NCBI GenBank assembly: GCA_002784465.1 | Contig: PFLE01000013.1 | Location: forward strand, 10,972 to 74,971 | Reading direction: 5' to 3' | DNA from: Candidatus Shapirobacteria bacterium CG_4_10_14_0_8_um_filter_39_15 | GTDB taxonomy: Bacteria; Patescibacteriota; Microgenomatia; UM-FILTER-39-15 | Length of the DNA stretch: 64,000 nucleotides | Part shown: positions 8,926-62,316 of the stretch, piece after piece | Layout: every line of letters starts with the position of its first letter | Numbering within the stretch: position 1 is the first letter of the stretch | Made by a program: the position numbers and the translations under genes | The notes under the pieces: model-generated | Told to the model about the DNA's origin: nothing | Seen by the model: the letters and a program-made list of their open reading frames with translations, nothing else | Database searches by the model: none

Positions 8926-8935
8926 CAAAACGAAA

Positions 8936-19017: not shown

Positions 19018-19026
19018 CTTTAAAAA

Positions 19027-21365: not shown

Positions 21366-21369
21366 GAAT

Positions 21370-24363: not shown

Positions 24364-26180
24364 GTCGTTTTACCCAGCGCTTCTTGCTTTTGCCGCATTA
24401 ATTCTTCAGGCCGGGTGGTAATTAGAAGATGTTCTTCAGGAGAAGCCAAAACACGAATGCGAACGTGATTGGCGCCGGCAAAAAATAACCCTTCACCGAC
24501 GTTGGCAGCCAGTAAAAGATTTTTTTCTCCTTCGGAAAGGTAAAAGACTTTGGCAATTTGGTCAATGGCGGCCGGCGACTGCTTCATTAAAATCTGAATT
24601 GACGAGTTGGTGACAATCGCTTTTCCATAATCAGTGCTCAAAAAATCCTCCACGTCTTGGGTAATCGTGGTCAGCCCCAGCCAGTATTTCCGGGCTCTTT
24701 TGGCAATTGAGTAAATAAAATTGGCCGAATCCGGAAACTTCATCAGATACCAGGCCTCGTCAATAATCAAAATCCGGCGCTTCATATCCCGCTTAACCCG
24801 GGTCCAAATATAATCAAGAATGATAAACATCGCAATCGGTCGGAGAGCCTCCTCGAGACCTTTTAAAGAAAAAACCGTAAAAGCGTTTTTAATGTCAACG
24901 GTTGATCTTTGGTCAAAAATTCCCACAAACGAACCTTTAACGAATTTTTCAATTCGGTCAGCCAGGCCTTTGGCGTCCGTTTCTTCCATGCCGATTAAAA
25001 CTTTATAAAGATCTTCCATTAACGGCGGTTCGTTTTTTTGAGTGGCTGGTTCCGGGGTAATCCCCTTCAGTTTATAAGTCAAAATTAATGCCCGATCTAA
25101 GAGCGCTTCTTCCGAGGGAGTGAGATTGCCCATAATAACTTTAAAAAGCGAATGCAGGGAAAGAATTTTTAAACCCAATTCGTTTTCGTCCTTTTCATAA
25201 ACTTGCGATAAGTCAAAAGGATTTATTTTTGTTCCTGAATTAAAGGAAAACTCAATAAACTCACCGCCGATCGCCGCGGCCAAAGTCTTATATTCGGCCT
25301 CCGGATCAACGACGATGACTTCGGTACCGAACATGAGAGAACGAAGGGCTTCGAGTTTGACCAAATAACTTTTGCCTGCGCCTGACTTAGCAAATATCAC
25401 CGAGTTCGCGTTCTCCATGGTAAACCGGTCAAAAATAATTAAACTTCCGTTATGAAGATTAATGCCATACATAATTCCTTCATTGGCGGTTAGTTCCGAG
25501 GAAGTAAAAGGAAAAGTGGTGGCTAAGCTAGTGGTATCCATATTTCTGGTGATCATCAGCCGGTCAACGCAAAGCGGCAAAGTGGTTTTAAAGCCGTCTT
25601 CCATTTGTAAAGTCGTATTTTTGGAAACAATCAACAAAGAACCAAGGGTCGATTGCACTTGTTTGGTAACTCGGTCCAACTCTTCCAGTGAGTCGGCCGG
25701 GATCGTAATATAAAGCCCGAATTGGAAAAAGCGCTCAATGCCTTTGACCAACTGTTCCTGCAAAGCCCGGGCATCTTCCAGTTTGGCGGCCGTGCTCGGA
25801 TTAATCACCCGGCCTCCTTGGATATCTAAAGAAATTTCCGCTTCCATTTCGGCAATTTTTCGGCGCAAATCGTCTAAAACCGTTTTCCCCTCCACCGGAT
25901 AAATAAACATGGAAATATTTAAAGAATGATCAAAACTGATTAAGGGCGATAGCCAATTAGCGGCCACAAACCGCGGATAGCCGGCGACAAAAAGCGTTCG
26001 GAAATAAGAGTTGTTAATTTTAATATAATTAAAGTCAACTTCAATTGCCGACGGGGCAATAATATCTTTAACCGACAGCATTCCCTCGGCCAATTTCATA
26101 TCTGCCTCGGAACTTGCGGTTGTGCTTTCAGTTCCGGGTTCCGGGTCCTTAGTTTTACTAAAAGGCAATTTAAAATTCAT
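24360..26180 (-). CDS. VirB4/TrbE/TraE-family T4SS ATPase (C-terminal ATPase portion)
   Basis: Walker A FAKSGAGKSY, Walker B ILIIDEAWYLM, plus conserved VirB4 motifs (DPEAEY, TQ...DF). It is 606 aa, shorter than typical ~800-aa VirB4. Confidence 0.8.
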   Translation of the reverse strand: MNFKLPFSKTKDPEPGTESTTASSEADMKLAEGMLSVKDIIAPSAIEVDFNYIKINNSYFRTLFVAGYPRFVAANWLSPLISFDHSLNISMFIYPVEGKTVLDDLRRKIAEMEAEISLDIQGGRVINPSTAAKLEDARALQEQLVKGIERFFQFGLYITIPADSLEELDRVTKQVQSTLGSLLIVSKNTTLQMEDGFKTTLPLCVDRLMITRNMDTTSLATTFPFTSSELTANEGIMYGINLHNGSLIIFDRFTMENANSVIFAKSGAGKSYLVKLEALRSLMFGTEVIVVDPEAEYKTLAAAIGGEFIEFSFNSGTKINPFDLSQVYEKDENELGLKILSLHSLFKVIMGNLTPSEEALLDRALILTYKLKGITPEPATQKNEPPLMEDLYKVLIGMEETDAKGLADRIEKFVKGSFVGIFDQRSTVDIKNAFTVFSLKGLEEALRPIAMFIILDYIWTRVKRDMKRRILIIDEAWYLMKFPDSANFIYSIAKRARKYWLGLTTITQDVEDFLSTDYGKAIVTNSSIQILMKQSPAAIDQIAKVFYLSEGEKNLLLAANVGEGLFFAGANHVRIRVLASPEEHLLITTRPEELMRQKQEALGKTT

Positions 26181-26863
26181 TTTTTCTCCTGTTCAACCAT
26201 GCCGGCCGCATATTCTTTACCGGTGGTTAATTTTTGCCCGCCGGCCGATTCGGGATTATAAATATCATAAAAAAGCTGAATGGCCTCCTGGGTTTTGATT
26301 TCCCTGATTTTTAACCCTAAACGGCCAAACTGGCGGACAATATGATCCCTTTTTGGTAACAAATTCATTTTGGCTTTTTCCAGAACATATTCTTTGGCAT
26401 AGGGCAGATTTCTGGGTTTTTTGACCAAGGCGGTTAAGTTTTGACTGACACCCAATTCCATTGAGGAAAAAGGAATAATAATATAAAAAGTTTTATCCAA
26501 AACATTATTCTTTTTAACCGTTTCTTCGACAAACCGCCGGTATTTGCGCATTTGATCCTGTAAAAGGGAATTGGTTTGTTTTTGGATTTCCCGATCAAGT
26601 AAAGTAAGATATTGAGTGACGTCTTTTTGGCGGGAGCGGATGACCAGCTGAATCGGAAAGGTTAACGAGTTGAGCAATTCAGCATAAGCATAAATCGTTG
26701 CATCCTGCTCTCTTTCGGAAAGTAAGCCGAAATTAATGGCCGTGGTGGATAAAATCAAACAGCACGAACCATCTTTAAGGATTACAACGTTGTCAACCAC
26801 GTCTTCAATGTTCAGATGGTCTTGGGTGGTGCCGCGAATTGGAATGGATAATGGGTCGGGCAT
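26177..26863 (-). CDS. Probable N-terminal domain of a split VirB4 (overlaps the downstream ATPase ORF by 4 nt, ATGA)
   Basis: 228 aa + 606 aa = VirB4 full size. ATGA overlap indicates translational coupling. No separate family recognised for this ORF. Confidence 0.45.
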   Translation of the reverse strand: MPDPLSIPIRGTTQDHLNIEDVVDNVVILKDGSCCLILSTTAINFGLLSEREQDATIYAYAELLNSLTFPIQLVIRSRQKDVTQYLTLLDREIQKQTNSLLQDQMRKYRRFVEETVKKNNVLDKTFYIIIPFSSMELGVSQNLTALVKKPRNLPYAKEYVLEKAKMNLLPKRDHIVRQFGRLGLKIREIKTQEAIQLFYDIYNPESAGGQKLTTGKEYAAGMVEQEKK

Positions 26864-26872
26864 AATATTTGA

Positions 26873-26996
26873 ATAAGTAGATTATCAGTTAATCAGAATA
26901 TCAGGAAAAGAAATCTGAGAGCAGAAACCAGTAAAATTAACCGATTAACTGATCTCTGTTTTACTTTACCTGATTTTCCGATCTACTGATTTACTA
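26873..26996. repeat. Family A palindromic repeat, copy R4 (intergenic inside the T4SS operon)
   Basis: ATTATCAGTTAATCAGAATATCAGGAAAAGAAATCTGAGAGCAGAAACCAG...CTCTGTTTTACTTTACCTGATTTTCCGATCTACTGATTTACT is about 75% identical to R1. Confidence 0.6.
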
Positions 26997-27962
26997 TTAT
27001 TTCGCTTTAATTTCAATCGGTTCTACAATCTCTCCTTTTAATTCTACTCTTACATTATCAAACGCGTAACCATCTTTTTCCAAAAGAATGTCATAAAAAC
27101 CATTGGCCAATTGAGTCGCGGTACGGAATTGACCGATTTTATTGGTCCGTAGGGCCCGAACCGGATTGGCGCCTTGATCCAAAATTTCCAGGATGACATT
27201 TTCCAAAATCCGGCCGTTTTTATCCGTTACCATACCAGCCAAAATATTAGGAATTGTTGGCGCCGACGGCATCGGTATTTCCGAAGAATACCGGGCCGGC
27301 TGCGCTTGAATCGGTTGGCGGAAAGTCGATGGCGGCGGAATATAAGGAATATGCGGGGGAGTGTATTTGGGAATATGAACCGGTTGAATATTTGGCTGCT
27401 GAACTTCTAAAACAAACGGGCCGCTTAATTTGTGAACCTGCACATTTCCAGGATTTGGGATCTCGTTGGTAACCCGGGTAACCGGCGGAGTGGTCATTGA
27501 AAACATATTTTTAATTTGATTTACAAATTCGTCTTCTTTTTGGTCAATGGCGCTTTTTGCGACCGGCAAGGTGGCAACATATTCGATCATTTTAATTTTG
27601 TCTTGAGGAGTGACCACTTGTTGAGCCGGTTCGACTGGAAGTGGCGGCCGTTCTTCTAAAAATTCCGGTTTTTTGGGCGTTTTTTTCCAAAGATACTGGG
27701 TGGGTGAATAAATAGTTTTCAAAAAAGACATAAGCCAGGTTTCTAAAGGTCGTTCTTCAATCGGGAAAAAAGCCAGGCCAACGCCTAAGACCGCCGAAAC
27801 AAAAACCAATGGCCATTTGAAATACCAGGCTAAACCGGAAGCGTAAAAAATTAACGCTACCACCAAACCGCCGGCTAATTCCAGAAATTGTTTTAAGGTC
27901 ATATCACCGACCAGGCGAAATTCATAGCTTGCAATATTTTGCGGGACTGGGTGTTGCTCCAT
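26997..27962 (-). CDS. Membrane protein with two N-terminal TM helices and Pro-rich C-terminal region; possible VirB3-like T4SS component
   Basis: LKQFLELAGGLVVALIFYASGLAWYF...LVFVSAVLGVGLAFF. Position directly upstream of the VirB4 ORFs as in Gram-positive-type T4SS (PrgI/VirB3-like). Confidence 0.35.
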   Translation of the reverse strand: MEQHPVPQNIASYEFRLVGDMTLKQFLELAGGLVVALIFYASGLAWYFKWPLVFVSAVLGVGLAFFPIEERPLETWLMSFLKTIYSPTQYLWKKTPKKPEFLEERPPLPVEPAQQVVTPQDKIKMIEYVATLPVAKSAIDQKEDEFVNQIKNMFSMTTPPVTRVTNEIPNPGNVQVHKLSGPFVLEVQQPNIQPVHIPKYTPPHIPYIPPPSTFRQPIQAQPARYSSEIPMPSAPTIPNILAGMVTDKNGRILENVILEILDQGANPVRALRTNKIGQFRTATQLANGFYDILLEKDGYAFDNVRVELKGEIVEPIEIKAK

Positions 27963-28009
27963 ATAATTTATTTTTCAAAGCGCATAGGGTATAGTGTATA
28001 GGAGATGCG

Positions 28010-28375
28010 CTAAGACGTATTTTTCATTAAGGTTGTTAATATTTTAATAAGCTCTTCGTTCGTATCCTTAAATTTTTTAATTATTTGCTCGTCAAATTTA
28101 TTCGTTTCTAAAATAATTTCTAGCCAATAATCAGCTTCAAAACTGGAACCGCGAGCAATTCCTAAAAATTGATGATAACTTTTCGAATAATGTCTTCCAT
28201 AACCTTCAGCGATATTGGCGCCGATTGAAGAAACCGCTCTTATTAATTGTTTTATTAAGATTTCAGAAACTCGGTCCAACTTGGCATTGGCAAAATAGTT
28301 TATAACATCAATTGTTAAGGTTTTTGCCTTTTGATAGACGATTAGATTTTTATGGGAACTGGGCGGGTTTTCCAT
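28010..28375 (-). CDS. Four-helix-bundle protein (23S rRNA intervening-sequence protein / DGR Avd superfamily, PF05635-like), copy 1
   Basis: From the internal Met: MENPPSSHKNLIVYQKAKTL...AVSSIGANIAEGYGRHYSKSYHQFLGIARGSSFEADYWLEI matches the family pattern (WQKA...IxxNIAEGxxR...FLxIAxGSxxE). Confidence 0.7.
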   Translation of the reverse strand: MENPPSSHKNLIVYQKAKTLTIDVINYFANAKLDRVSEILIKQLIRAVSSIGANIAEGYGRHYSKSYHQFLGIARGSSFEADYWLEIILETNKFDEQIIKKFKDTNEELIKILTTLMKNTS

Positions 28376-28509
28376 TCTTTCTATGCACTTTGTGCTATGC
28401 ACTATGTTACTATCCATCGAGATTGGATTCAACTGCTTCAGACCCGATCACATTACAAACAAAATATGGCAAGTGGAAACAACTTGGTTGTTTGTGGTAA
28501 AATTAGGTT

Positions 28510-28932
28510 ATGGTTACCCGAGAACAAAAGGAAAAAATCTTTGCTTTGGGGAAAAAATACAATCTGGATTTTATTATCCTCTATGGTTCTGTGGCTAGAA
28601 ATCAGGCAGGAAAGCTTTCGGATTTAGATATTGCGGTTTATAAAAAAGGAGGGATTACTTCGGAAAAATATTTTGAACTTTACGGGAAAATGTTTGGGAT
28701 TTTTGAAAGTAAAGAAGTTGATTTAAAGACACTTAACGATCAGAGTATTTTATACCGGTATTTGGTGGTTCGCGACGGAATTTTGTTATTCGGAAATGAA
28801 TTGGAATATTTAAAATTTAAAACTTATATAATCCGTGATTATCAGGACAGCAAAGATCTTTTTGATTTGGCTGGATCTCTTGTTAGACGTCACCAGAAAG
28901 AATTGGAAGAAAGGTTAAATGTTAAATACTGA
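28510..28932 (+). CDS. Minimal nucleotidyltransferase (MntA-like antitoxin)
   Basis: LYGSVARNQAGKLSDLDIAV is the GS-x10-DxD NTase motif. Overlaps the downstream HEPN gene (ATGTTAAATACTGA). Confidence 0.75.
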   Translation: MVTREQKEKIFALGKKYNLDFIILYGSVARNQAGKLSDLDIAVYKKGGITSEKYFELYGKMFGIFESKEVDLKTLNDQSILYRYLVVRDGILLFGNELEYLKFKTYIIRDYQDSKDLFDLAGSLVRRHQKELEERLNVKY

Positions 28933-29353
28933 ATTTATCTACCAAAAAATTGCTTTAATCCGCCAAGATCTGGAATTTTTGGACAAAATGGCAAATTTGA
29001 GTTTTGAGGAAGTGGCTAAGGACTTCTATAAATACAATACCGTTCAAATGTTATTAATGAAAATCATTGGTCGAGCCATTGATATTAACGAACACCTTAT
29101 TGACGAATTGGCCAACGCAGAAACGAAATCGCCTGGGACTTATCGGGAAACTTTTTTACAACTGGCAGACTTGAAAATTTTACCGGCTGATTTTGCTTCT
29201 GAAATTGCCAAAAGCGCCGGATTCCGAAATGCAATTGTTCATGAATATGACAAATTAGACGATTTTATTATTTATAAAACAATCGGCGAGGCGGTAGTCC
29301 AATATACTAAATATTGCCATTATGTTTTAGATCTTATCTCCAGAAAGTCTTAA
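28919..29353 (+). CDS. HEPN-domain protein (HepT/DUF86-like toxin)
   Basis: R-x4-H-x-Y motif FRNAIVHEY near the C-terminus; overlapping pair with the preceding MNT. Confidence 0.75.
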   Translation: MLNTEFIYQKIALIRQDLEFLDKMANLSFEEVAKDFYKYNTVQMLLMKIIGRAIDINEHLIDELANAETKSPGTYRETFLQLADLKILPADFASEIAKSAGFRNAIVHEYDKLDDFIIYKTIGEAVVQYTKYCHYVLDLISRKS

Positions 29354-29425
29354 TTTTTCCAACCATCTTTAACTCTCGTCTTGTAGACAGGACAAGAATA
29401 TGATAAAATTGTTCCAAATGCAATT

Positions 29426-30703
29426 TTGAGGACTCTTTTATACGAATGGAAGGAAAGAAAATTACCCTTGGCCATAGAGCGCGATATTCATTTGGATATT
29501 TCCCGGCCGCCGGAAATTAAGAACGCCATGGTGATAACCGGTTTTCGGCGCGTAGGAAAGACCTATCTGCTTTATGAGACGATAGAAAAACTTTTAGAAA
29601 CTTATCCTCGTGAACAAGTGGTTTATCTTAATTTTGAGGATGAGCGGATAATCTCGCCCGCCACCGACCTTTTGACTGATCTCCTGCCGGAAATACAAGC
29701 GGTTTATGGTCAAAAACCTAAGTATTTATTTTTAGACGAACTGCAATTGATTCCCAATTGGTCAAAATGGGTACGCCGGATTCTTGATACGGAAACAGTC
29801 CAGATATTTATTACCGGTTCCTCCTCAAAAATGAGCAGTGCGGAATTACCGACTGAACTTCGAGGTCGGGCTTGGGAAACAAAAGTCGAGCCCCTTACTT
29901 TCAAAGAATTTTTGCGCTTTAAAAAAACTGCGATTGATAAGGAAAAGTTGACTTATGTAAAAGAAGAAGCGGCCCGTTTTTGTTTTCTTTTTGAGGAATA
30001 CATAACTTTTGGGGCATTGCCGGCCGTAGTCCTGACTCAATCCGAAAAAAAACAAGAGCTTTTACAGTCTTATTTTCAAACCGTGGTGCAAAGAGATATT
30101 GCCGAAAGATACAAAATAGACAACGACGTCGCCTTAAGAACCCTTTTGAAATTACTTCTTAATTCCAGTTATATCACCATATCCAAACTCACCAAGAACA
30201 TAAAAAGTCTGGGGATTCCCATTGGTAAATCAACCATTGACAGCTATCTCTCGTATATTGAAACCTCATATTTCCTAAATGAACTATATATTCATAATCC
30301 GGCGGTTATAAACCAATTGCAGTATCCGCGAAAGGTTTATTTTGTGGATACTGGGTTTATGACCGCCCTGTCAACAAAGTTTTCCAAAAACATGGGACGG
30401 TTATTTGAAAATGTTGTTTATCATAAACTCGCTCAAAGCAAGGAAACAATGTATTACTATAAAGACAATAAGGGAAATGAAGTTGATTTTGCGATTTTAG
30501 GGGAGGACAAAACGACCGCTTTGTATCAGGTTTGTTTTGATTTGACAGACGAAGAAATTCTCAATCGTGAAGTTAAATCACTTTTAAAAGCGAAAGAAAC
30601 GCTTAAATGCCAAAACCTTAATCTATTGTATCTTGAAAAAACAGAAACTTTTAAATTGCCTAAAGAAATTAAGCTTCTTTCCGCCCCGGAATTTTTCTTA
30701 TAA
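29426..30703 (+). CDS. AAA+ ATPase with C-terminal DUF4143 (COG1373 family), paralog 1
   Basis: Walker A ITGFRRVGKTYLL, Walker B LFLDELQ, restriction-endonuclease-like C-terminal region. Confidence 0.75.
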   Translation: MRTLLYEWKERKLPLAIERDIHLDISRPPEIKNAMVITGFRRVGKTYLLYETIEKLLETYPREQVVYLNFEDERIISPATDLLTDLLPEIQAVYGQKPKYLFLDELQLIPNWSKWVRRILDTETVQIFITGSSSKMSSAELPTELRGRAWETKVEPLTFKEFLRFKKTAIDKEKLTYVKEEAARFCFLFEEYITFGALPAVVLTQSEKKQELLQSYFQTVVQRDIAERYKIDNDVALRTLLKLLLNSSYITISKLTKNIKSLGIPIGKSTIDSYLSYIETSYFLNELYIHNPAVINQLQYPRKVYFVDTGFMTALSTKFSKNMGRLFENVVYHKLAQSKETMYYYKDNKGNEVDFAILGEDKTTALYQVCFDLTDEEILNREVKSLLKAKETLKCQNLNLLYLEKTETFKLPKEIKLLSAPEFFL

Positions 30704-30714
30704 ACTCAGTATAT

Positions 30715-30776
30715 TAAGTATTGTGGGTATATTTTGGATTTCATCTCAAAAAAGAATTAATTTTTCTTTACTACCA
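30715..30776. repeat. Conserved ~55-bp 3' element, copy 1 (also at 32060-32111)
   Basis: agtattgtgggtatattttggatttcatctcaaaaaagaattaatttttc versus aatattgcgggtatgttttagatttcatctcaaaaaagaattaatttttc. Confidence 0.6.
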
Positions 30777-30844
30777 GGCGAGCTTGGTAATTAGATAAAA
30801 AGGACTTGACAAATACAAATTATCAGATATAATGGATTTAGTAA

Positions 30845-32059
30845 ATGACAATTATCCGAGATTTAACCCTAAAGATAAATCATTACCTTCGATCGGAAGA
30901 GATTATTCTTATTATTGGAGCTAGACAATCGGGAAAAACGACGGTTCTTCATCAGTTGGAAGGATTCTTGCGTGAAGCAAAAGAGGTTTCCTTTTTTTTG
31001 AATCTAGAGGATTCAGAATATCTAACACTTTTGAACCAATCGCCAAAAAATATTTTTCAAATTTTTCCATTTGATCTAACCCAAAAAAACTTTCTTTTTG
31101 TTGACGAAATTCAATATTTGGATAATCCCTCAAACTTTTTAAAGTATTTATACGATGAATATGCGGGGAAAATTAAGATTATTGCTTCTGGTTCTTCGGC
31201 TTTTTATTTGGATAAAAAATTTAAAGAATCTTTGGCCGGGAGAAAAAGAATTTTTCAGTTATACACGCTTTCGTTTAAAGAATTTTTAAGATTTAAAGAC
31301 GAAACTCCGCTGGCCGAGAAGGATTTTATCGGATTAACTCTTTCGGAAAAGGAAAAAATAAGCCTTTACTATCAAGAATATGTGGTTTATGGAGGATATC
31401 CTAAGGTTGTTTTAGCGCCAAAAGAGGAAAAAGAAAATTTATTAAGTGATTTGGCCTACTCCTATATTAAGAAAGATATTTTCGAGTCGGGAATTAGGCA
31501 AGATGAAGTATTTTACCGGCTTTTTAAAATTTTAGCCTCGCAGACCGGAAACTTGGTCAATACCGCAGAATTAGCGGCAACCTTAGGAGTTTCTAAAACC
31601 GCGATTGATAATTATCTTTACACGATGCAAAAATCTTTTCATTTAGCTTTAATCCGGCCGTTTTTCCAAAACATCCGCAAGGAATTAACCAAAATGCCCA
31701 AAGTTTATTTTTTGGATTTGGGATTAAGAAACTTTTTTTGCAGCAATTTTAACCTTTTTGAAACACGGGATGATAAAGGACCGCTTTTGGAAAATGCCGT
31801 TTTTCGGCAGCTATTGGAAAAATATCCTTTGGAAGAGATTAAGTTTTGGCGGACAACGGCGAAACAAGAGGTTGATTTTATCGCTGGCGAAAACTCCGCT
31901 TTTGAGGTTAAATCGCAGGCAAAAAATGTCAGGCGGAAAGACTATCAAACCTTTTTAGAAAATTATCCAAAAATTAAGCTTTCCCTGGCTGTTTTTCAGG
32001 AAACAGAAAAAAAATCTAGCCCATTTCCCGTATATGAGGTTTGGCAGCTGCCAATTTAG
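30845..32059 (+). CDS. AAA+ ATPase with DUF4143 (COG1373 family), paralog 2
   Basis: IIGARQSGKTTVL, FLFVDEIQ; same architecture as paralogs 1 and 3; TTGACA-17-TATAAT promoter at 30808-30836. Confidence 0.75.
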   Translation: MTIIRDLTLKINHYLRSEEIILIIGARQSGKTTVLHQLEGFLREAKEVSFFLNLEDSEYLTLLNQSPKNIFQIFPFDLTQKNFLFVDEIQYLDNPSNFLKYLYDEYAGKIKIIASGSSAFYLDKKFKESLAGRKRIFQLYTLSFKEFLRFKDETPLAEKDFIGLTLSEKEKISLYYQEYVVYGGYPKVVLAPKEEKENLLSDLAYSYIKKDIFESGIRQDEVFYRLFKILASQTGNLVNTAELAATLGVSKTAIDNYLYTMQKSFHLALIRPFFQNIRKELTKMPKVYFLDLGLRNFFCSNFNLFETRDDKGPLLENAVFRQLLEKYPLEEIKFWRTTAKQEVDFIAGENSAFEVKSQAKNVRRKDYQTFLENYPKIKLSLAVFQETEKKSSPFPVYEVWQLPI

Positions 32060-32111
32060 TAAATATTGCGGGTATGTTTTAGATTTCATCTCAAAAAAGA
32101 ATTAATTTTTC
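32060..32111. repeat. Conserved 3' element, copy 2
   Basis: See copy 1; 30-bp core gatttcatctcaaaaaagaattaatttttc is identical. Confidence 0.6.
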
Positions 32112-32156
32112 CTCTTCCCTATTTGAATCTTGCAAAAAATGATATAATTCAAATAT

Positions 32157-33929
32157 ATGCCAGATCCAGAACGAAGACTGCCTATTCCTCCGCCCGAGGC
32201 CAGCCAGGAGCCAAGATACGTTCCTCCCGAAATGATGGGAAGTTATTATTATCCAATACAGGATAAGGATTTGGCGGTTGAGATTGTTAAGGCTAACAAC
32301 GAAACCCTTCCTGAAGTAATATCGAATGCGATTTCCTATAGCGAGGGATTAATTTTAGGACGGGAAGTAGATTTAACCGATGATAATGAAGTTCTGTTTT
32401 ATATGGGTTTATTCTTAACCGGCGAGGGTGCGTTAAAAGTTCCGCTATTTTCTTATGCCAATCAGGCTTTGGAAATTAGAACGAGTGGTCGAGTAAGAGA
32501 GATAAGAAGCGAGGCTAGAACAACGCGCAGACCGTTGACAGAGGAAGAAAAGAAAGAGAAAACACTTTTAATTGGGATGGAGAATTGGAACAATGCTCGT
32601 CAAACGGCTCATCAGGCTTTTTTGGAGAGAGTGATAACTTGTGCCTCCGAAGAGGCAGCTGCGGATTTGGCTTTGAATACTCCGGCTCAAAAAGCCCCGA
32701 CAACACCGGACAAAACCGTTTGGCAAAATCTTTTTGGCCAACCGACGAAAGAAGGAGAAGCAACTCCTCAAAGTGAGTTTGGTAATTACGTGGATCTCAC
32801 CATGAGAGGGTTGGTGGCAATAGGAATTCCTCCTAGGGGCACACCCGAGTTTGATCGCTTACACCCTGACTTTAAGAACTTCAATTTTAGAGAAGTTTTG
32901 CCGCCAGCGGATAGAAATATACTTCCATGTACGATCTATACGACGGGTTTTGATAGCGAAAGTTTTAAAGCCTTGCTTAATTATGCGTTGCATATTTCCG
33001 ATGGAAGAATGGATGTTGTTTGGGAAGCGTGGAAATTATTTGAGACATGGGAAATGACAACAAATTTCGGATATATGAAAGATTTTGGGCAGAAGAAAGA
33101 TACCCCTAAATATATACACGGAGATCATAAATTAGGAGGCGCCCCGATAATGAGTGCGCTTTATGCCTGGATAGATCATCTTCCGGAAAAAAGGGCTTTT
33201 GAATATGGATATTGGGCCGATGGTACTTTAAATCCGGAATCGCCTCACAAACTTTCCCATAGCGGACACCCCTTAAGTATTTCTAAAATTCCATCGCTTT
33301 GCGGAGATTTTCTTAAAGAAACGAAGGTTGATGCGCCCGGCGGAGGAAAAAAGTCACTTCGGGAAATTTGGGCAGGGGGAATGTCTTTTGCTGATCGCGA
33401 ATTTCCCTGGACGCATTTAGAACAAGCAACACAAGATATGTCGCGGCTTGAGGAACAGGATTTTGGATCTTACAGCAGTTGGTTATTTAGGCGAAGAAGA
33501 GCTTTCAATATGGTTAAGGATATTAGAGAATTACCCTTCAAAGGTTTAAATGATTATGGAAAAGCAGACTTCTTTTCTTCGAGAATCAGAAACTGGAGGA
33601 ATACTTTGTATTTGCCGAAAGCGGATCAATATACACCAGATCAAAATCCGATGGTTTGGTTAATGGCAGACATCATTTTTAATCATCATCCGGAAACTAA
33701 CAATCATATTCCTTGGGCGCAAAAAAACCCGGATTTAGCTCTAAGAACCAGCCTTGATCCAAAAGAACGGTTTTCTTTTAATCCTATAAACGATCCCGAC
33801 GCAAAAAAACTATCTGCTTGGGAATTTTTAAGAGCTGGTTATGATTCAACCTGGATAACAAAGAAAGATGCTGAGTGGATTCGGGATTATCTTAAGATTC
33901 CTACCGCGGTGGGACAAAGAGGTCTTTAG
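32157..33929 (+). CDS. Hypothetical 590-aa cytoplasmic protein; W/Y/H-rich; no recognisable domain; locally higher GC
   Basis: Long uninterrupted ORF, no TM or signal peptide. First 150 nt about 47% GC versus about 37% background. Confidence 0.5.
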   Translation: MPDPERRLPIPPPEASQEPRYVPPEMMGSYYYPIQDKDLAVEIVKANNETLPEVISNAISYSEGLILGREVDLTDDNEVLFYMGLFLTGEGALKVPLFSYANQALEIRTSGRVREIRSEARTTRRPLTEEEKKEKTLLIGMENWNNARQTAHQAFLERVITCASEEAAADLALNTPAQKAPTTPDKTVWQNLFGQPTKEGEATPQSEFGNYVDLTMRGLVAIGIPPRGTPEFDRLHPDFKNFNFREVLPPADRNILPCTIYTTGFDSESFKALLNYALHISDGRMDVVWEAWKLFETWEMTTNFGYMKDFGQKKDTPKYIHGDHKLGGAPIMSALYAWIDHLPEKRAFEYGYWADGTLNPESPHKLSHSGHPLSISKIPSLCGDFLKETKVDAPGGGKKSLREIWAGGMSFADREFPWTHLEQATQDMSRLEEQDFGSYSSWLFRRRRAFNMVKDIRELPFKGLNDYGKADFFSSRIRNWRNTLYLPKADQYTPDQNPMVWLMADIIFNHHPETNNHIPWAQKNPDLALRTSLDPKERFSFNPINDPDAKKLSAWEFLRAGYDSTWITKKDAEWIRDYLKIPTAVGQRGL

Positions 33930-33931
33930 TT

Positions 33932-35515
33932 TCATCTTCCCGATAGAATCTTCTTGGTCGCAGCTTCTTTAGTATTCCAAGTAAGGCCTTGCCATTCTGT
34001 AGGTATTACAGGGCTTTTTCCTGTTGTTAAGTTGCGATAGCCTGCTTCAATTCCTCCGGCGGCCCCCATTCTTCCTGCAGCCATTGGAACACCCATTGCT
34101 GCTTCCCCTATTCCTAGTCTATCTCCAAACGATTTCCCAGCCAAAACATTTTTAATCATATCGGCAACATGAGGCGTCATGAGCATCAATCCTAAGGCAA
34201 CAAAGATCATTAAAAAGAAAAAGCTGACTCTGGCTGGGATACTCGCTTGTACGACTTGTTGAACTTCGGCTAAGGTTGATGGTGAGGCACCGGGAATAGA
34301 AACAATTCCTATTCCTGCGAAAGCTCCTTCGAGTAATGGCATTTCATGGAGGGATTCCCTAACCAGAAAATTGGCGATCAAGAGCATTGTTAAAACGACT
34401 GGTAGAACCGCGAGGTTGCTCAAAATATTTTTAAACCAAGCACCGGTTGAGCTGGAAGCAGGAAGGGCGCCAAAAGCAAGAAGAAATGGAGCGAAAATAA
34501 TTGCCAAAACAACATTTACATAAGCCTTAAGCAACGTCCACAAAAGACGAAAAAGGGCGATGATGAAAACGATAGCAAAAATGATCAAAAGAATTAATGC
34601 GCCGACGACTGCGCCGGTAGCCATTCCCGCCGGTCCTCCAAATGGAATACCGGCAACTCCTCCAACAATCATGCCAAGAATAATAAGGAAGACAGCACCG
34701 ATTTCAAACGGTGCCATTGCGGATTGAATAATTAAGCTAGCATTATCAACAACAGAGGTAACCGGGGTCCCGGAGACAAAACTGAAATAATCAGGCCGAA
34801 GTTGATGAAAAACACCCAAAAGAAGATTATTAATAATCCACATAAGGTCGACTAAAAAGCCAGCGATAGCATAGGAAAAAGTGACCAGAATTAAGCCAAT
34901 AATAATTTTTGGGAGGGCTGCCTCGAGGGTAATTATTGTGCGCGGATCCACTTTAAATCGAAACATGATGGCAAAACCGGTAATCACAAAAACCAAAACA
35001 AAAAGAAGGTAAGACATGTCTCGAAAAGCTTTCCAGAGAGGCAAAACCGTTTCCATACTTGTAAATCCAATGCCATTATCTTGTGCATAAGCCGGTTTAG
35101 CGATGCCGACCTTTGAACCAAGATCAGCTAAATAAGTCAATCCCGAAGCGGGAGGTGCTTGGTAAACTAAACCAATAAGAGAAGCGAGGGTTGGAACAAG
35201 TCCGCCATTATCTGTTCCCGGACTTGGGGTACCGCCGCTGGAAACAGTACTCAATTTTGGCATTCCTGCCTGATCCGCAAAAGAAAACATAATGGCTTTA
35301 ATGGTTTCGCGAACAAAACTTTGCAAATTCATATCCGGGGATTCTATTGCTTGCTGATATAAAAGAGGATATGAGGCTTCGGGTGTAGAAAATGCCAGAA
35401 CAGGTTTGGAAACGGCAAGAGAACCTGCAATTAAGAGAAAACCTAAGACAAATATGCGGAATTTGGTGTTCATAATGAATAAATTAAATCTAACATCATT
35501 ATTTTTTATTTTCAA
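33932..35515 (-). CDS. Polytopic membrane protein, VirB6/TrbL-like candidate (T4SS inner-membrane channel)
   Basis: Signal peptide (FLLIAGSLAVSKPVLAF), about 200-aa periplasmic N-domain, then about 6-7 TM helices rich in G/A/I (IPFGGPAGMATGAVVGALILLIIFAIVFII). Next to the pilin operon. Confidence 0.45.
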   Translation of the reverse strand: MKIKNNDVRFNLFIMNTKFRIFVLGFLLIAGSLAVSKPVLAFSTPEASYPLLYQQAIESPDMNLQSFVRETIKAIMFSFADQAGMPKLSTVSSGGTPSPGTDNGGLVPTLASLIGLVYQAPPASGLTYLADLGSKVGIAKPAYAQDNGIGFTSMETVLPLWKAFRDMSYLLFVLVFVITGFAIMFRFKVDPRTIITLEAALPKIIIGLILVTFSYAIAGFLVDLMWIINNLLLGVFHQLRPDYFSFVSGTPVTSVVDNASLIIQSAMAPFEIGAVFLIILGMIVGGVAGIPFGGPAGMATGAVVGALILLIIFAIVFIIALFRLLWTLLKAYVNVVLAIIFAPFLLAFGALPASSSTGAWFKNILSNLAVLPVVLTMLLIANFLVRESLHEMPLLEGAFAGIGIVSIPGASPSTLAEVQQVVQASIPARVSFFFLMIFVALGLMLMTPHVADMIKNVLAGKSFGDRLGIGEAAMGVPMAAGRMGAAGGIEAGYRNLTTGKSPVIPTEWQGLTWNTKEAATKKILSGR

Positions 35516-35664: not shown

Positions 35665-36249
35665 ATGATTAACAACGACTTTATTTTACAACTTTATTAT
35701 CGGCCGGAAACGGTTTTCACTATTAATGAGATTGCCCAACTCTACCCTGACGTTTCTTACGAGAGTGTGCGTGACCGCCTATATTATTTTGCTAAAACCG
35801 GGAAATTGAAACGGCCTCACCAGGGGATTTATGCGAAAAACGACTACCATCCTTTTGAATTGGCCAATAAACTTTATAAACCGTCATATATCAGTTTGGA
35901 AACTGTCCTGGCAAAACAAGGCGTGGTCTTTCAGTCTTACAAAACAATTTTTGTTGTTTCCTATTTGACAAGAACAATAACCATAAACGAGACAGAAATC
36001 CAGTATCGGCAAATTAAAGGAGAAATCTTGACCAATACTGAAGGAATTGATCAGAAAGATGGTTATTTTACGGCTACCCGCGAGCGGGCGTTTTTAGACG
36101 CAATTTATATCTATAAAAATTATCATTTTGACAATTTAGGGGCAATTGATTGGAACGAAGTTGAAGCCCTTAAAAAAATCTATAAAAGCAAAATCTTTGA
36201 AAAAAGAGTTGGGGAGTATTATCAATTATCCAAGGAGGAACATGGTTAA
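35665..36249 (+). CDS. AbiEi-like antitoxin / transcriptional regulator (type IV TA, abortive infection)
   Basis: 194 aa, N-terminal wHTH-like; overlaps the AbiEii start by 8 nt; typical AbiEi-AbiEii gene order. Confidence 0.6.
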   Translation: MINNDFILQLYYRPETVFTINEIAQLYPDVSYESVRDRLYYFAKTGKLKRPHQGIYAKNDYHPFELANKLYKPSYISLETVLAKQGVVFQSYKTIFVVSYLTRTITINETEIQYRQIKGEILTNTEGIDQKDGYFTATRERAFLDAIYIYKNYHFDNLGAIDWNEVEALKKIYKSKIFEKRVGEYYQLSKEEHG

Positions 36250-36946
36250 CATTGATTTGCACCGAACCATTTTTATTAATATTTTACGGGAAATTTATTC
36301 TGATCCAAGTTTAAGAAGTGTTTTGGGTTTTAAGGGCGGAACCGCGGCCTTTTTGTTTTACGGATTGCCCCGTTTTTCCGTTGACTTGGATTTTGATTTA
36401 CTGGATTTGAAGCAAAAAGAAGTCGTTTTTACCCGGTTAAAAGAAATTCTACCCAATTTTGGTACTCTGACAGAGGCGATCGAAAAACGATATACTCTTT
36501 TTTTCCTTCTGAATTACCAAAAAGGAGAAAGAAATTTGAAAGTGGAAATCTCCAAAAGACCGGTTAAGGCGGATTTTACTATTAAAAATTATTTGGGTAT
36601 TTCGATGTTGGTAATGGCGCCGGCTGATATGGCGGCGGGGAAGATTTCCGCCTTGTTGACTCGAAAACGATTTGCCTCTCGAGATGTTTATGATGTTTGG
36701 TTTTATTTAAAAAATAATTGGCCAATTAACGAGAAGTTGTTGCAGGAAAAAACGGGAATGTCGTTGGCTAATGCTCTAAAAAAAGCACAGGAAAAGGTAA
36801 ATGGTCTTAAAAAAACAGAGTTATTGTCTGGTTTGGGTGAACTTTTGGATAATAAACAAAAAATGTGGGTGAGAGAAAAGTTAATTGAAGAAACAATTTA
36901 TTACTTAAAACTATATCAATCACAAATATTAGACTTAAGACATTAG
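36242..36946 (+). CDS. AbiEii/AbiGii-family nucleotidyltransferase toxin (DUF1814)
   Basis: FKGGTAAFLFYGLPRFSVDLDFDLL matches the GGTAL...RFSEDLDF signature of the family. Confidence 0.75.
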   Translation: MVNIDLHRTIFINILREIYSDPSLRSVLGFKGGTAAFLFYGLPRFSVDLDFDLLDLKQKEVVFTRLKEILPNFGTLTEAIEKRYTLFFLLNYQKGERNLKVEISKRPVKADFTIKNYLGISMLVMAPADMAAGKISALLTRKRFASRDVYDVWFYLKNNWPINEKLLQEKTGMSLANALKKAQEKVNGLKKTELLSGLGELLDNKQKMWVREKLIEETIYYLKLYQSQILDLRH

Positions 36947-37445: not shown

Positions 37446-40400
37446 TTATGGTTTGCAACAAACATTCACACCTCCGCAACCATCCCCGCCGGGTAGTCCA
37501 GTGCCGAGAGTGTCATTTGCAGCACAACTATCAGTGCAAGTTCCACCCAGTTGAGAACAAGAGAGGACGGGGTTAACGCTCGTTAAGCTGGCTGGAAACA
37601 GACTGTTGGTTACCCATTGTTTTGCCTGTTGGATTCCGCCCAAGTGGGGGAAATAAAACTGGCCTTCGGTCGGAGAAGTTGAACCGTCTTTGTGTCTTTG
37701 AAGGGGACAATCACCTTTGATTGGTAGGTTTCCGGAACACCAACCAACCTGATCGCTGTAAGGTGTATATTTTATTGTTGCCTGGCTTATTGCTGGTGTA
37801 TCCGGAAAACCGGGATGAAAGGAAGGACGAAAAATATTAAGCACCCCCATTGATCCACTGGTCTGATTCCAAATATCATCAAGATAGGGGTGAATTAAGC
37901 TGACCCCTATATTACGGCTAACTTGCTCACTATCATTCCAGATGGTTGGTTGGCTTCCTTCTCGGCCGGTCCATTCGTAACATCGATTATCAGTATTTTG
38001 TATTTGGACACAGACCGGATCAGGCGCAACATTATTGGGATTTGCCCAATCACCGGCTTCACAAGTTACCGTATGTCCGTTTCCTCGTCCACCCAAATCA
38101 AGACAGGGGTCCATATTTATCTGATCATATTTTCCTTCTTCAAGCAGCCAAGCTTGACAAGCCCAACTGGATCCATTGCAGGCAACATATCGATTATTTT
38201 CAAATTTATCCACCGCGGTTAGTTTATATTGAATATTGCTGCAGCAAAGAGTATCGCCGGTTCCGGTAATGGCATCTTTTTTAATACAGGAATCAATTGA
38301 TTTGGCTGGATCCTGGAAACAAGTTGGCGGTGGGGCCGGGGCAACACCGCAAGTCGTATCCCATTTATAAGTCCCATCGGCGTTTTGAGCCAAGGTGATA
38401 CTGCAAGAAACGGATCCTCCATCCACGCAGCAGTTCGCTCGGGAACCGCCGGAAGCTTTTGTCCAATTGGCAGAAACTGTAAAAGCATCGCCAACATTCA
38501 TATTTATGGTGCTGGGATGATAATTAGTTCCCCATTGAGTTTCCCATTTACCCGGACACTGGATTTCTGGACCGCCAGTGTCTGATAAAAATCCGCTGGC
38601 GCCTCCAGAATCATAGATTGATAAATTCTTTAAATGGGAAATACCGTCACAATTTTGTCCGGCCGGACAGGGAACACAAAAATAAGATTTAAAACTATGT
38701 TGTCCTGGGGCTGGAGCATCAATATCATAAAAAGTCATATTACCTGTACAGTATCTTTGGCAGGGTGGAGGAGTCGCCGCCTGAACGGATTTGGGACTAA
38801 ATAAGCCAGTGAGTGGATTGTTGGTAGAGGAATTATCAGCAAGAACATTCTGGTTATTGGAAATTTGGGCCGTTGTGGTAATTGGTTCATTGTAGGGAAT
38901 TAAAATACTGGAAACTATTTTACTTGATTCATATAATCTTGCCAGATGGGGAACTTTTTCAACCTGATTTTTATTGGTGGGATCTAAATTTGTAAAAGTG
39001 TCTTCGTTTTTAGCACCTAAATAAGGTTGAATCAGGCCTTCGGTATCTTCCCGGGAAACCAATGGAACCGCTTCCCAAATACGCCCCCAAGTACTTTTTT
39101 TCCAAGTCGCCCACTTTATTTCATAATCAGAGTCGTTGACCGAAGGAGGAAGATGACTGGCAATTTCCGAAAGTTTTTTATGCCCTTCGAGGTCTGAAAA
39201 CGGCGGAATCGGTATAAAACCCATACTATAATAACGAACGTCTATAGGTAAGAGCTTCCCTAATGGTGATGCGTTATAAGCTCGTAAGATTAAACCAATT
39301 TTATCAATTTCCACAGCTTGATCAGCACTATTATTAAATAAACAATGATGAAACCATTCATCCTTGCTAGGTACAGGTACTCCTAATTTTTTATAAATTA
39401 AACTAATTAAATTAAATTCGTTCCAAATATCATAAGAAATCTCCATAATAAACGGAGCATCCCAACAAAGACGGGTTGGATAGTTAACCATATAATCATG
39501 AATTTTTCCTTCAAAAGGCGCTTGGGTATTAAGCGAGCGCACCGCCCTGGCGACCATTTGTTCTTTAAGGGTGTCTTGGTAGGTCATGGGTGTTAATTTT
39601 CTTAAAACCCCGGCATAATTAACATAATCCAACCAGTATTTTTCATAGTTTTTATAATATTCATTTGTTCCTTCAAAATAATCCGCCAAATATTTACTTT
39701 CACTTTCTTGGTCTTCCTTACCCACAAAAGGAATAGTAATATCTTTTGGATTAATCGTAATTGTTCCGCCCCAAGTGGTAGTGACTAAATGAGGAACAGT
39801 TAACGTTGCATCAGTACAGCTATCTGGACCCATCCATCTTTGCCAGGAAACATGATCAGTGACGGTAAAACTGGTAGCGCAGCTGCCGGAATTATTACCA
39901 ATATTGCAAGCTTGACAGGCGACCGGTCGGGAATTACGGTCACCGTTTTGAGTTAGGTCGCAAACCGTTGATGGATAATTCGGAAGGGGGGGTTTAGTAT
40001 CAATCGTTCCCGGAAGTGTAGTATTTGCTTTTGCGGGTGTATTACAAGGATCCCACCAATCGTTTTTCCAGCGCGGATCCATAAATCCGCCGGTATCTCT
40101 AATTGCCACCTGAATATCTCCGTGAGCCGTTCCTAATATTTCGGAAGCACCTAAAGCGGGTAGTTGAACCCGTCCGGCAGCATTAAGTTGATTATATAAA
40201 GCTAAAAGTTCCGGTCTAACGGTAAAATTTCCCATAATATGGATACCGTATCCGTTTCTAATCCCGCCGCCGGTATTATACATAATAAAAATCTCATTAG
40301 ATGAAGCATAATAAACCATCACCTGTTTGCCGTTGCCGATACTAAACGGAGCAGCGGGCACAAGGATATTTCCGGTTGATGAACCGTTAGTGGAAAAACC

Positions 40401-40742
40401 AACAACTGAAGCATAATCACTTGGGTTTTCTTTTATAGTTTCTAAAGCATCAATCGGTAAATTGGTACCACTATCATATTGATGAATTCGGTATAAAGTG
40501 GTAACCACTGGCCGGGCATCATCCTCAACCAAACCGCACAATCTGGGAGCACTGTTTACGGGATGCGCGAAATAAAAAAGACCATAATTATGACCTTGCT
40601 CACCGATTGGAATTTGAACTAAACCTCTTAAGCTTATTCTTAGATCCAGATCGGTTTCTGCAGTACGGGCATAAATTGGGGAAGATATACCAGCAAACCA
40701 GACAACCAGTAAACTAGAAAACCCGAATAGAAGTTTCTTCAT
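37446..40742 (-). CDS. 1098-aa secreted Cys/Trp-rich surface protein, candidate pilus-associated adhesin; C-terminus carries a defensin-like 6-Cys motif
   Basis: Signal peptide MKKLLFGFSSLLVVWFAGISSPIYA. Last gene of the pilin operon. Terminal CSQLGGTCTDSCAANDTLGTGLPGGDGCGGVNVCCKP has the pattern C-x6-C-x3-C-xn-C-x5-CC. Confidence 0.55.
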   Translation of the reverse strand: MKKLLFGFSSLLVVWFAGISSPIYARTAETDLDLRISLRGLVQIPIGEQGHNYGLFYFAHPVNSAPRLCGLVEDDARPVVTTLYRIHQYDSGTNLPIDALETIKENPSDYASVVGFSTNGSSTGNILVPAAPFSIGNGKQVMVYYASSNEIFIMYNTGGGIRNGYGIHIMGNFTVRPELLALYNQLNAAGRVQLPALGASEILGTAHGDIQVAIRDTGGFMDPRWKNDWWDPCNTPAKANTTLPGTIDTKPPLPNYPSTVCDLTQNGDRNSRPVACQACNIGNNSGSCATSFTVTDHVSWQRWMGPDSCTDATLTVPHLVTTTWGGTITINPKDITIPFVGKEDQESESKYLADYFEGTNEYYKNYEKYWLDYVNYAGVLRKLTPMTYQDTLKEQMVARAVRSLNTQAPFEGKIHDYMVNYPTRLCWDAPFIMEISYDIWNEFNLISLIYKKLGVPVPSKDEWFHHCLFNNSADQAVEIDKIGLILRAYNASPLGKLLPIDVRYYSMGFIPIPPFSDLEGHKKLSEIASHLPPSVNDSDYEIKWATWKKSTWGRIWEAVPLVSREDTEGLIQPYLGAKNEDTFTNLDPTNKNQVEKVPHLARLYESSKIVSSILIPYNEPITTTAQISNNQNVLADNSSTNNPLTGLFSPKSVQAATPPPCQRYCTGNMTFYDIDAPAPGQHSFKSYFCVPCPAGQNCDGISHLKNLSIYDSGGASGFLSDTGGPEIQCPGKWETQWGTNYHPSTINMNVGDAFTVSANWTKASGGSRANCCVDGGSVSCSITLAQNADGTYKWDTTCGVAPAPPPTCFQDPAKSIDSCIKKDAITGTGDTLCCSNIQYKLTAVDKFENNRYVACNGSSWACQAWLLEEGKYDQINMDPCLDLGGRGNGHTVTCEAGDWANPNNVAPDPVCVQIQNTDNRCYEWTGREGSQPTIWNDSEQVSRNIGVSLIHPYLDDIWNQTSGSMGVLNIFRPSFHPGFPDTPAISQATIKYTPYSDQVGWCSGNLPIKGDCPLQRHKDGSTSPTEGQFYFPHLGGIQQAKQWVTNSLFPASLTSVNPVLSCSQLGGTCTDSCAANDTLGTGLPGGDGCGGVNVCCKP

Positions 40743-40747: not shown

Positions 40748-41059
40748 TTACGAGCTGGGAATACTAAAGTTGAGAACATCAACACCGGTGAATTGCCAAA
40801 TAAATTTCATAATCAACCAGATAATTACCAGCATCACCAGGCCAAAAATGGCATAGGTTATGGTTTGAGAAGCCGAGGCAGACGCTTTTGGATCTCCTCC
40901 GGAAGTCATATATTTAAAACCACCCATGATCAACAAGATAAATAAAAGCAAAACCCCCAGCTGGGCCGCGATATTCAAAATAATTTTAAATATGCACTCG
41001 AATCCTTGAAGAGTTGCAACGCCGCCGATTGTACATTTAGGATCTTCCCAAATAGCCAT
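40748..41059 (-). CDS. VirB2/TrbC-like small pilin paralog
   Basis: Two hydrophobic helices flanking the loop motif GGFKYMTSGGDPKAS...AIFGLVMLVI. This pattern is shared by all eight paralogs. Confidence 0.55.
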   Translation of the reverse strand: MAIWEDPKCTIGGVATLQGFECIFKIILNIAAQLGVLLLFILLIMGGFKYMTSGGDPKASASASQTITYAIFGLVMLVIIWLIMKFIWQFTGVDVLNFSIPSS

Positions 41060-41142
41060 ATATTTAGTTTATCAGACCATAATAAAAACACAATACCCCG
41101 AGCCAAGCTCCGGGTATTGTAATTCTTGTACAAAAATCCAAC

Positions 41143-41535: not shown

Positions 41536-41562
41536 TTTCTCACCTCCTTTCGAACTACTTAT

Positions 41563-41889: not shown

Positions 41890-41893
41890 TTAA

Positions 41894-42693: not shown

Positions 42694-42697
42694 ATTG

Positions 42698-62315: not shown

Positions 62316-62316
62316 G

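Follow-up and report, generated by a model that had tools for sequence, protein, structure and literature searches.

A fixed position beside a virB6-like gene in a Patescibacterial type IV secretion locus holds one large, soluble and fast-changing protein, a candidate secreted substrate

What does a secretion machine carry whose bearer cannot grow without it? The Patescibacterial type IV secretion system (T4SS) is the first T4SS found to be essential to the growth of its bearer (PMC10633639, PMC12857230); it is needed for epibiotic growth, neither a relaxase nor a coupling protein can be recognised in its locus, and no substrate is known for it (PMC10633639, PMC12102498, PMC12857230). The question is raised again by a 64,000-nucleotide stretch of contig PFLE01000013.1 from Candidatus Shapirobacteria bacterium CG_4_10_14_0_8_um_filter_39_15, the whole of which we call the window, where the gene of a 590-amino-acid (aa) protein stands inside a locus of this kind, next to the gene of a VirB6-like protein. 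Comparison with related loci shows that this gene position, hereafter the slot, is fixed, and that its occupant changes far faster than the machine around it. With a probability of roughly 0.4, we infer that the 590-aa protein is the dedicated translocated substrate of the T4SS, that is, an effector or a host-specificity factor.

A preliminary description of the window, made from the sequence alone, had presented the protein as an orphan. This label had to be given up, as HMMER, run exhaustively against 1.84 billion cluster representatives, returned a family of 78 representatives at E ≤ 1e-3, 46 of these at E ≤ 1e-30, nearly all of them full-length (543 to 763 aa). A word-indexed homolog search, run with the single sequence or with a 48-sequence profile, had found nothing beyond the protein itself and a single relative, 34% identical to it. 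Going by a few source labels, the family belongs to Shapirobacteria, Microgenomates and the Patescibacteria group, and the hypothetical protein COT44_03435 of Candidatus Shapirobacteria bacterium CG08_land matches the 590-aa protein at 100% identity over its full length.

Using homologs of the 590-aa protein as bait, we collected 28 loci from ENA, JGI, Logan, NCBI and GTDB, two of which came from a GTDB scan with a nine-sequence alignment. In all 23 informative loci, meaning those with more than about 600 nt downstream of the homolog, the gene converges on a VirB6-like homolog, usually within 0 to 40 nt, and in 19 loci it is divergent from a prgI-trsD-virB4-hydrolase operon. Pilin arrays and dnaA/dnaN recur beside the locus, the latter linkage being seen in L001, L027 and L028, and the weakest family members (P0054, P0066 and P0072) sit in the same context. 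Even in L003, L008 and L018, where the VirB4 operon lies elsewhere, the homolog is still linked to the VirB6-like gene and to the pilins. The VirB6-like gene is the most constant neighbour of the family. The 590-aa gene is thus a fixed-position part of the T4SS locus, as a core component would be. Two of the GTDB records used here, L002 (CAZPLB010000001.1) and L003 (CAZGPK010000010.1), are labelled "uncultured Gammaproteobacteria bacterium" yet carry a Patescibacteria-type T4SS together with the family; their submitter taxonomy looks wrong.

In its conservation, the gene does not behave as a core component. Between the window and L001, the 590-aa protein retains 34% identity, similar to the VirB6-like protein (35%) and a 1098-aa secreted protein (34%), as compared to 77% for VirB4, 70% for TrsD, 54% for DnaN, 45% for PrgI and 38 to 57% for the pilins; and in other comparisons, homology of the occupant is lost at 75 to 86% VirB4 identity. 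The latter became visible in four extra loci (L029 to L032) which were gathered through homologs of the VirB6-like protein and are therefore unbiased with respect to the 590-aa family. Their VirB4 proteins are 75 to 81% identical to that of the window, and L031 has the closest T4SS of all (VirB4 81%, VirB6-like protein 44%). Each of the four has exactly one large soluble gene without a Pfam match in the equivalent place and orientation, encoding proteins of 1122 aa (L029), 766 aa (L030), 633 aa (L031) and 768 aa (L032). Searches with hmmsearch, phmmer, hhalign and BLAST assigned none of these proteins to the family, nor is any of the four similar to another. Domain-level hidden Markov models (HMMs) gave weak collinear matches to the L032 protein in three segments (E 4e-6, 6e-4 and 0.02), which take in LCxSYLxExxV and PW motifs and therefore identify it as a remote homolog; with the same HMMs L031 was borderline, and L029 and L030 gave nothing.

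The loss of similarity does not simply follow the divergence of the machine. In L002, L007, L027 and L028, VirB4 is just 61 to 67% identical, yet the slot proteins are clear family members (25 to 27% identity), while in a neighbour-joining VirB4 tree, for which no bootstrap support was computed, loci with and without a family member are intermingled. L030 and L015 share 86% identity in VirB4 and 45% in the VirB6-like protein, but their slot proteins show no similarity, and those of L031 and L001 are likewise dissimilar; in all, the occupant is unrecognisably different between loci whose VirB4 proteins are 83 to 86% identical. Judged from these sequence comparisons, the occupant is repeatedly replaced, or remodelled beyond recognition, while the machine stays in place.

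What the occupants do have in common, whether homologous or not, is an acidic, Pro/Gly-rich stretch of 30 residues at the N-terminus. The net charge of these residues is −2.4 in the family and −3.3 in the other slot proteins, against a window background of +0.9; Pro and Gly make up 18 to 23% of them in slot proteins, against 9% in the background, and they are poorly hydrophobic. In addition, all 78 family members and the four other slot proteins are soluble, with a maximum hydropathy below 1.4, and stand alone, fused to no other domain.

The gene itself and the element in front of it are as follows.

32157-33929, + strand: gene of the 590-aa protein (open reading frame [ORF] with ATG start, and its translation)
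32140-32148, + strand: extended −10-like element TGATATAAT, 8 nt before the ATG of the 590-aa gene (read directly from the sequence)

Kyte-Doolittle means over 19 residues peak at 1.29 in the 590-aa protein, so that it has no transmembrane (TM) segment, and no signal peptide was found at its N-terminus; it is therefore a soluble protein made in the cytoplasm. Searches of Pfam, NCBIfam, PHROGs and PADLOC returned zero matches. The preliminary description was thus right to call the gene a long cytoplasmic ORF between two ATPase genes and a VirB6-like gene (the polytopic gene spans 33932-35515) and to assign it no motif. Its picture of a distinct composition fared less well. While the first 150 nt are indeed rich in G and C (48% GC), the whole gene has 42.3% GC (z +0.93, rank 11 among the 58 ORFs of the window) and 35.9% GC at third codon positions (z −0.14), equal to the flanking T4SS genes at 42 to 45% GC and within the normal range of the genome. 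The compositional deviants are the inserted genes upstream, which are AT-rich (33 to 38% GC), and the visible GC contrast stems from them, not from the 590-aa gene. Of the supposed richness in Trp, Tyr and His, only Trp holds up (2.7%, rank 5 of 58); His is mildly high (2.2%, rank 9), and Tyr is average (3.6%, rank 27). No Shine-Dalgarno sequence is seen before the ATG, and a consensus scan of that region gave no full −35/−10 pair. Together with the placement of TGATATAAT, the missing Shine-Dalgarno sequence suggests that the 590-aa gene has its own promoter and a leaderless or near-leaderless mRNA.

The T4SS locus around the gene comprises the following features.

17680-20406, + strand: dnaA-dnaN (Pfam)
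21370-24363, − strand: M23 peptidoglycan hydrolase (Pfam/NCBIfam)
24360-26180, − strand: VirB4 ATPase (Pfam/NCBIfam)
26177-26863, − strand: TrsD/TraC-like protein (Pfam/NCBIfam)
26997-27962, − strand: PrgI/VirB3-like protein (Pfam/NCBIfam)
33932-35515, − strand: VirB6-like polytopic protein (about 8 to 10 hydrophobic segments)
37446-40742, − strand: large signal-peptide protein of 1098 aa (signal peptide and TM pattern)
40748-43021, − strand: about six small two-TM VirB2-like pilin genes (PF18895 T4SS_pilin), upstream of the 1098-aa gene in its operon

The PrgI-TrsD-VirB4-hydrolase operon (21370-27962, − strand) is divergent from the 590-aa gene. The minimum of the cumulative GC skew falls at about 18 to 20 kb of the window and coincides with dnaA-dnaN; therefore, the T4SS locus adjoins the replication origin. 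To the right of the origin, all T4SS structural operons are on the − strand, head-on to replication, whereas the slot gene is read in the direction of replication, as are all the inserted cassettes. Between dnaN and the hydrolase gene lies another gene (20397-21587, − strand), the ORF of which overlaps that of the hydrolase at 21370-21587. Its product of 396 aa has three TM segments near the N-terminus and matches nothing in Pfam. Genes for proteins of 338 to 350 aa hold the equivalent position in L027 and L028; possibly, the 396-aa protein is another undescribed T4SS component, such as a VirB8 analogue. At the other end, a polyprenyl synthetase gene directly flanks the pilin array in many loci, among others in the window (43197-44243), in L001 (18597-19658), in L005 (11741-13596) and in L029 to L032. 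This conserved linkage often includes an undecaprenyl-diphosphate synthase (Prenyltransf) and sometimes two further pilin genes beyond. Farther along the window lie a tmRNA gene (60647-61009), which encodes the tag peptide GTSNYAANYAYC, and behind it a pair of neighbouring tRNA-Ser genes (62227-62404).

The identity of the VirB6-like neighbour rests on its predicted structure. It has 579 homolog clusters, is 450 to 580 aa long in this clade, and is without a Pfam TrbL match. The five best Foldseek matches of its AlphaFold2 model (mean predicted local distance difference test [pLDDT] score, 74) in the PDB are all TrwI/VirB6 of R388, followed by DotA; the R388 matches are weak, with probabilities of 0.87 to 1.0 but E-values of 0.04 to 0.16 and TM-scores of 0.34 to 0.45. 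The polytopic neighbour is thus plausibly a VirB6. Its gene and the slot gene are convergent, and in the window their stops are 2 nt apart (33929/33932). Elsewhere, too, the two stops are mostly 0 to 40 nt apart, for example at 12025/12026 in L002, 11899/11901 in L008 and 11752/11755 in L028. This spacing leaves no room for a terminator, and therefore the transcripts of the two genes must overlap; transcriptional interference or antisense coupling between them is possible. In L005, L007, L029 and L032, an ORF of 47 to 71 aa lies between the two genes, on the strand of the VirB6-like gene.

As for the 590-aa protein, conservation runs along the whole chain in a 71-sequence family alignment. The conserved residues include E63, G64, E90, R148, R158, P184, D185, G209, Y261, F270, W292, E299, E349, G370, P372, W418, W442, R448 and R478, whereas the same alignment shows no P-loop, no Gly-rich loop and no conserved His, Cys, Ser or Lys. 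Among the conserved polar residues, acids and arginines are about equal in number and are distributed over the full length, a pattern which looks structural rather than active-site-like. Two short stretches that could be mistaken for motifs were rejected: a Walker A reading of APGGGKKS, which is unconserved and broken by insertions in homologs, and an HUH reading of HSGHP and NHHPE, whose His residues are not conserved, HSGHP keeping only Gly370 and Pro372. Tyr261, conserved in 86% of the family, is not by itself diagnostic of a relaxase.

An AlphaFold2 model computed from a 48-sequence alignment is confident (mean pLDDT 89.2, predicted TM-score 0.89). It predicts a disordered, acidic, Pro/Gly-rich tail for residues 1 to 35 and, beyond that, a compact, mostly alpha-helical fold with a few small hairpins. 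Foldseek found no neighbour of this model at E ≤ 1e-3 among 350,542 PDB chains and BFVD; the best E-values, 0.04 (PDB) and 0.08 (BFVD) with TM-scores of 0.16 or less, went to alpha-solenoids, P450s and terpene synthases and are noise. A profile search of PDB sequences and a Pfam search with all 48 members likewise gave nothing. The predicted fold is without a known relative within PDB and BFVD. A terpene-synthase idea, prompted by the nearby polyprenyl synthase, was dropped, since neither a DDxxD nor an NSE motif is conserved in the family.

Membership in the obvious candidate classes was checked as well. A coupling protein of the VirD4/TcpA kind would be the conspicuous missing partner of the window locus, similar in size to the 590-aa protein and also located at the cytoplasmic face. 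However, the protein has no Walker A (GxxxxGK[ST]) or Walker B motif, no conserved Lys, no TM anchor and no Pfam or NCBIfam match to AAA, TraG or T4SS-DNA_transf, and there is no P-loop fold among its Foldseek matches; neither VirD4/TcpA nor FtsK/HerA-like proteins can count it as a member. Nor is it recognisable as a relaxase of the MOB classes (HUH, Rep_trans or PD-(D/E)xK), lacking a His triad and any Pfam, NCBIfam or structural match to these. Defence and toxin-antitoxin (TA) systems gave the same answer, with PADLOC matching neither the 590-aa protein nor any of the other slot proteins.

The preliminary description had further considered the gene a cargo of the accessory genes that precede it. 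These genes, and a second set behind the VirB6-like gene, are as follows.

28510-28932, + strand: MNT (Pfam)
28919-29353, + strand: HepT (Pfam)
29426-30703, + strand: AAA_14/DUF4143 ATPase 1 (Pfam)
30845-32059, + strand: AAA_14/DUF4143 ATPase 2 (Pfam)
35665-36946, + strand: AbiEi/AbiEii type IV TA pair (Pfam, NCBIfam, PADLOC)

PADLOC assigns these neighbours to PDC-S09, PDC-S01 and AbiE, which are candidate-defence or TA families. The two ATPases had been described as duplicated, and both are indeed AAA_14 paralogs; at 27% identity, however, they must be old paralogs rather than products of a recent duplication. In the window, the gap between prgI and the slot gene is 4.2 kb (27963-32156), but it varies widely among loci. 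L005 has 119 bp there, with nothing between, and L010 about 230 bp; the gap of L001 measures 1.4 kb and contains a 242-aa gene as well as one for 23S_rRNA_IVP, and that of L011 is occupied by small paired TA-like genes over 3.5 kb (6440-9913). In L015 (9036-9899) and L016 (7539-8196), the flanks are 99.4 to 99.8% identical and the slot-gene coding regions almost so, whereas the gap genes differ. This divergent region is a hotspot where small accessory cassettes come and go, among them TA pairs, AAA_14/DUF4143 "PDC-S01" ATPases, 23S_rRNA_IVP/bAvd and DUF433. A search for an integration site near the hotspot (tRNA and Rfam scans) found nothing, and no integrase marks the site. The AbiE pair represents a second insertion point, between the VirB6-like and 1098-aa genes, which adjoin each other in L001; it is on the strand opposite to the operon it interrupts, an essential-looking one. 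Since the cassettes vary or are absent among loci while the slot gene persists, the cassettes are insertions and the 590-aa gene is not their cargo.

A conserved 3′ element of ATPase 2, also mentioned in the preliminary description, turned out to be real. It is one of three copies of a 60-nt direct repeat (29300-29359, 30707-30766 and 32052-32111), 75 to 88% identical, which are located at the 3′ ends of HepT, ATPase 1 and ATPase 2, the third copy spanning the ATPase 2 stop. Behind each copy comes an extended −10-like TGATA(A/T)AAT, and the next + strand gene starts 46 to 79 nt downstream of the copy; for the third copy, the distance to the start of the 590-aa gene is 46 nt. In nhmmer searches, the repeat copies have E-values between 4e-17 and 3e-15, and weak copies are seen in the prgI-slot gap of L011 (7377-7423 and 9812-9855) and L020 (1546-1591). 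The repeat could be a shared promoter or operator, or else a cassette junction.

How do these observations relate to known systems? Helicobacter CagA and the Bartonella Beps are large soluble T4SS effectors which are encoded in the locus, have no signal peptide, are lineage-restricted and fast-evolving, and possess unique folds. The 590-aa protein is like them in being large, soluble, encoded in the T4SS cluster, without a signal peptide, lineage-restricted and fast-evolving, with a predicted fold that has no relative. Unlike them, it has no known translocation signal, chaperone or coupling protein, and it comes from a monoderm epibiont, not from a pathogen of eukaryotes. A different comparison is offered by the extended hydrophilic domains of VirB6 proteins, for example the C-terminal part of F TraG, which vary between related systems. 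Such domains (Southlakia; PMC12857230) and the 590-aa protein, likened here by description, are both large, helical, soluble and VirB6-associated, but the 590-aa protein is a separate gene on the opposite strand, is never fused, and its evolution is decoupled from that of the VirB6-like protein.

The machine itself is familiar. The window has the gene set published for the MPF-FATA-like T4SS of Patescibacteria (Wang et al. 2023, PMC10633639; Quinonero-Coronel et al. 2025, PMC12102498), including VirB4, TrsD, PrgI/VirB3, the VirB6-like protein, the peptidoglycan hydrolase and the VirB2-like pilin array, and as in the published systems, the locus adjoins dnaA/dnaN and is without a relaxase or type IV coupling protein (T4CP). 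The 590-aa family and a slot for a soluble gene on the opposite strand are absent from the components described in PMC10633639 and PMC12102498. In Southlakia, unlike in the window, all genes from prgI to the pilins encode membrane proteins and are on one strand (PMC10633639). We therefore rate the locus as one of a known kind, the Patescibacterial T4SS, and the slot as what seems to be an undescribed, fast-evolving accessory or effector position in it.

If the slot protein is an effector, this large soluble protein, which is made in the cytoplasm from its own transcription unit, opposite every structural T4SS gene, would be passed via the VirB4/VirB6 channel and the pilus into the host bacterium. 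The disordered, acidic, Pro/Gly-rich N-terminal tail shared by the occupants would be the candidate recognition signal, and the fast turnover of the slot would reflect adaptation to different hosts. We favour this reading because the protein is soluble, lacks a signal peptide, has its own transcription unit and a relative-less predicted fold, and shows rapid turnover. Equally in keeping with it is a T4SS on which epibiotic growth depends and for which no substrate is known. The looser suggestion of an effector in the preliminary description gains indirect support from the same traits (soluble protein, own transcription unit, unmatched fold, variable slot) and is still something that we infer. 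A bolder version, in which each lineage would inject one large polymorphic effector with a new fold, swapped or remodelled per host and targeted by its N-terminal tail without any coupling protein, strikes us as rather unlikely. Several observations weigh against an effector. The 590-aa protein shows none of the known T4SS signals, be it BID, XVIPCD or a C-terminal tail that is positively charged or hydrophobic; its C-terminal 20 residues are ordinary (net charge +1.0 versus +0.7 in the background), a T4SS signal like its acidic Pro/Gly-rich N-terminal tail has not been established, and no coupling protein that would recruit a cytoplasmic substrate was seen nearby. The ratio of nonsynonymous to synonymous substitution rates is 0.08 to 0.19 in family pairs at 72 to 76% identity; the family gene is therefore under purifying selection, as the neighbours are, and positive selection was not demonstrated in these pairs. 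A slot gene present exactly once in every locus looks more like a part of the machine than like one of a repertoire of effectors, only four loci were sampled through the VirB6-like gene, and the undetectable sequence similarity between occupants is compatible with a shared fold. Finally, Saccharibacteria, the only experimental system, have no separate gene of this type; here, helical soluble domains are fused to VirB6-like proteins (PMC10633639).

The main rival, somewhat unlikely in our estimate, takes up this last point and counts the 590-aa protein as a cytoplasmic part of the machine itself, equivalent to the hydrophilic domains of extended VirB6 proteins but with a gene of its own. It would bind to the short VirB6-like protein and/or VirB4, where it could serve as platform, gate or substrate receptor, perhaps in place of the missing coupling protein. 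Linkage of the slot gene is tightest to the VirB6-like gene, even with the VirB4 operon elsewhere (L003, L008 and L018), one copy is always present per locus, the VirB6-like proteins of this clade are short, and the two proteins diverge alike between the window and L001 (34% and 35%). Moreover, the polytopic Southlakia proteins SEML1_0011 (998 aa) and SEML1_0013 (1088 aa, VirB6) carry C-terminal ARM-like soluble domains (PMC10633639 and its supplement), and extended VirB6 hydrophilic domains of unknown role are known (PMC12857230). Such a module sits poorly with the comparison of L030 and L015, where the slot has evolved independently of the VirB6-like protein and VirB4, and transcription from the opposite strand appears unfit for the stoichiometric co-expression of a subunit. 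Fusions that might betray a module are missing too: none of the 78 family members is fused to a membrane or other domain, and the 120 best VirB6-like homologs are all too short to contain the 590-aa protein as well. We regard as improbable that the slot encodes an enzyme for processing DNA or substrate, such as a relaxase-like protein with its site in the upstream gap, or a regulator of T4SS transcription or assembly. Regulators and relaxase/oriT modules typically diverge from an operon in this way, relaxase families share no homology with one another and can be exchanged, which would suit slot replacement, Tyr261 is near-invariant alongside several conserved Asp, Glu and Arg, and very different relaxases may await discovery (PMC12102498); but sequence searches and Foldseek revealed no HUH, Rep_trans, PD-(D/E)xK, helix-turn-helix or nucleic-acid-binding fold, the conserved polar residues look structural, and in the studied system ComEC-independent essentiality and the lack of a T4CP speak against DNA transfer (PMC12857230). 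Least credible by far is a foreign orphan that arrived with the ATPase/TA block. The 590-aa gene does adjoin the MNT-HepT and AAA_14 cassettes in the same orientation and has the 60-nt upstream repeat in common with them, yet its composition is normal for the genome, its homologs occupy the equivalent T4SS position in cassette-free loci (L005, L010 and L031-type layouts), and the cassettes differ among loci, even between L015 and L016, while the slot gene stays, so that synteny refutes this explanation.

For the biology of these bacteria, the Microgenomatia-type locus offers a concrete candidate for the substrate or specificity module of the T4SS, in a position where a single large soluble protein is always encoded, one that evolves, or is replaced, far faster than the surrounding machine. 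The confidently predicted fold without a structural neighbour makes the 590-aa protein a good target for structure determination, while the defence cassettes mark a strain-variable hotspot inside an essential locus. Should the slot protein be the substrate, the long-sought cargo of the essential Patescibacterial T4SS would be located beside the virB6-like gene.

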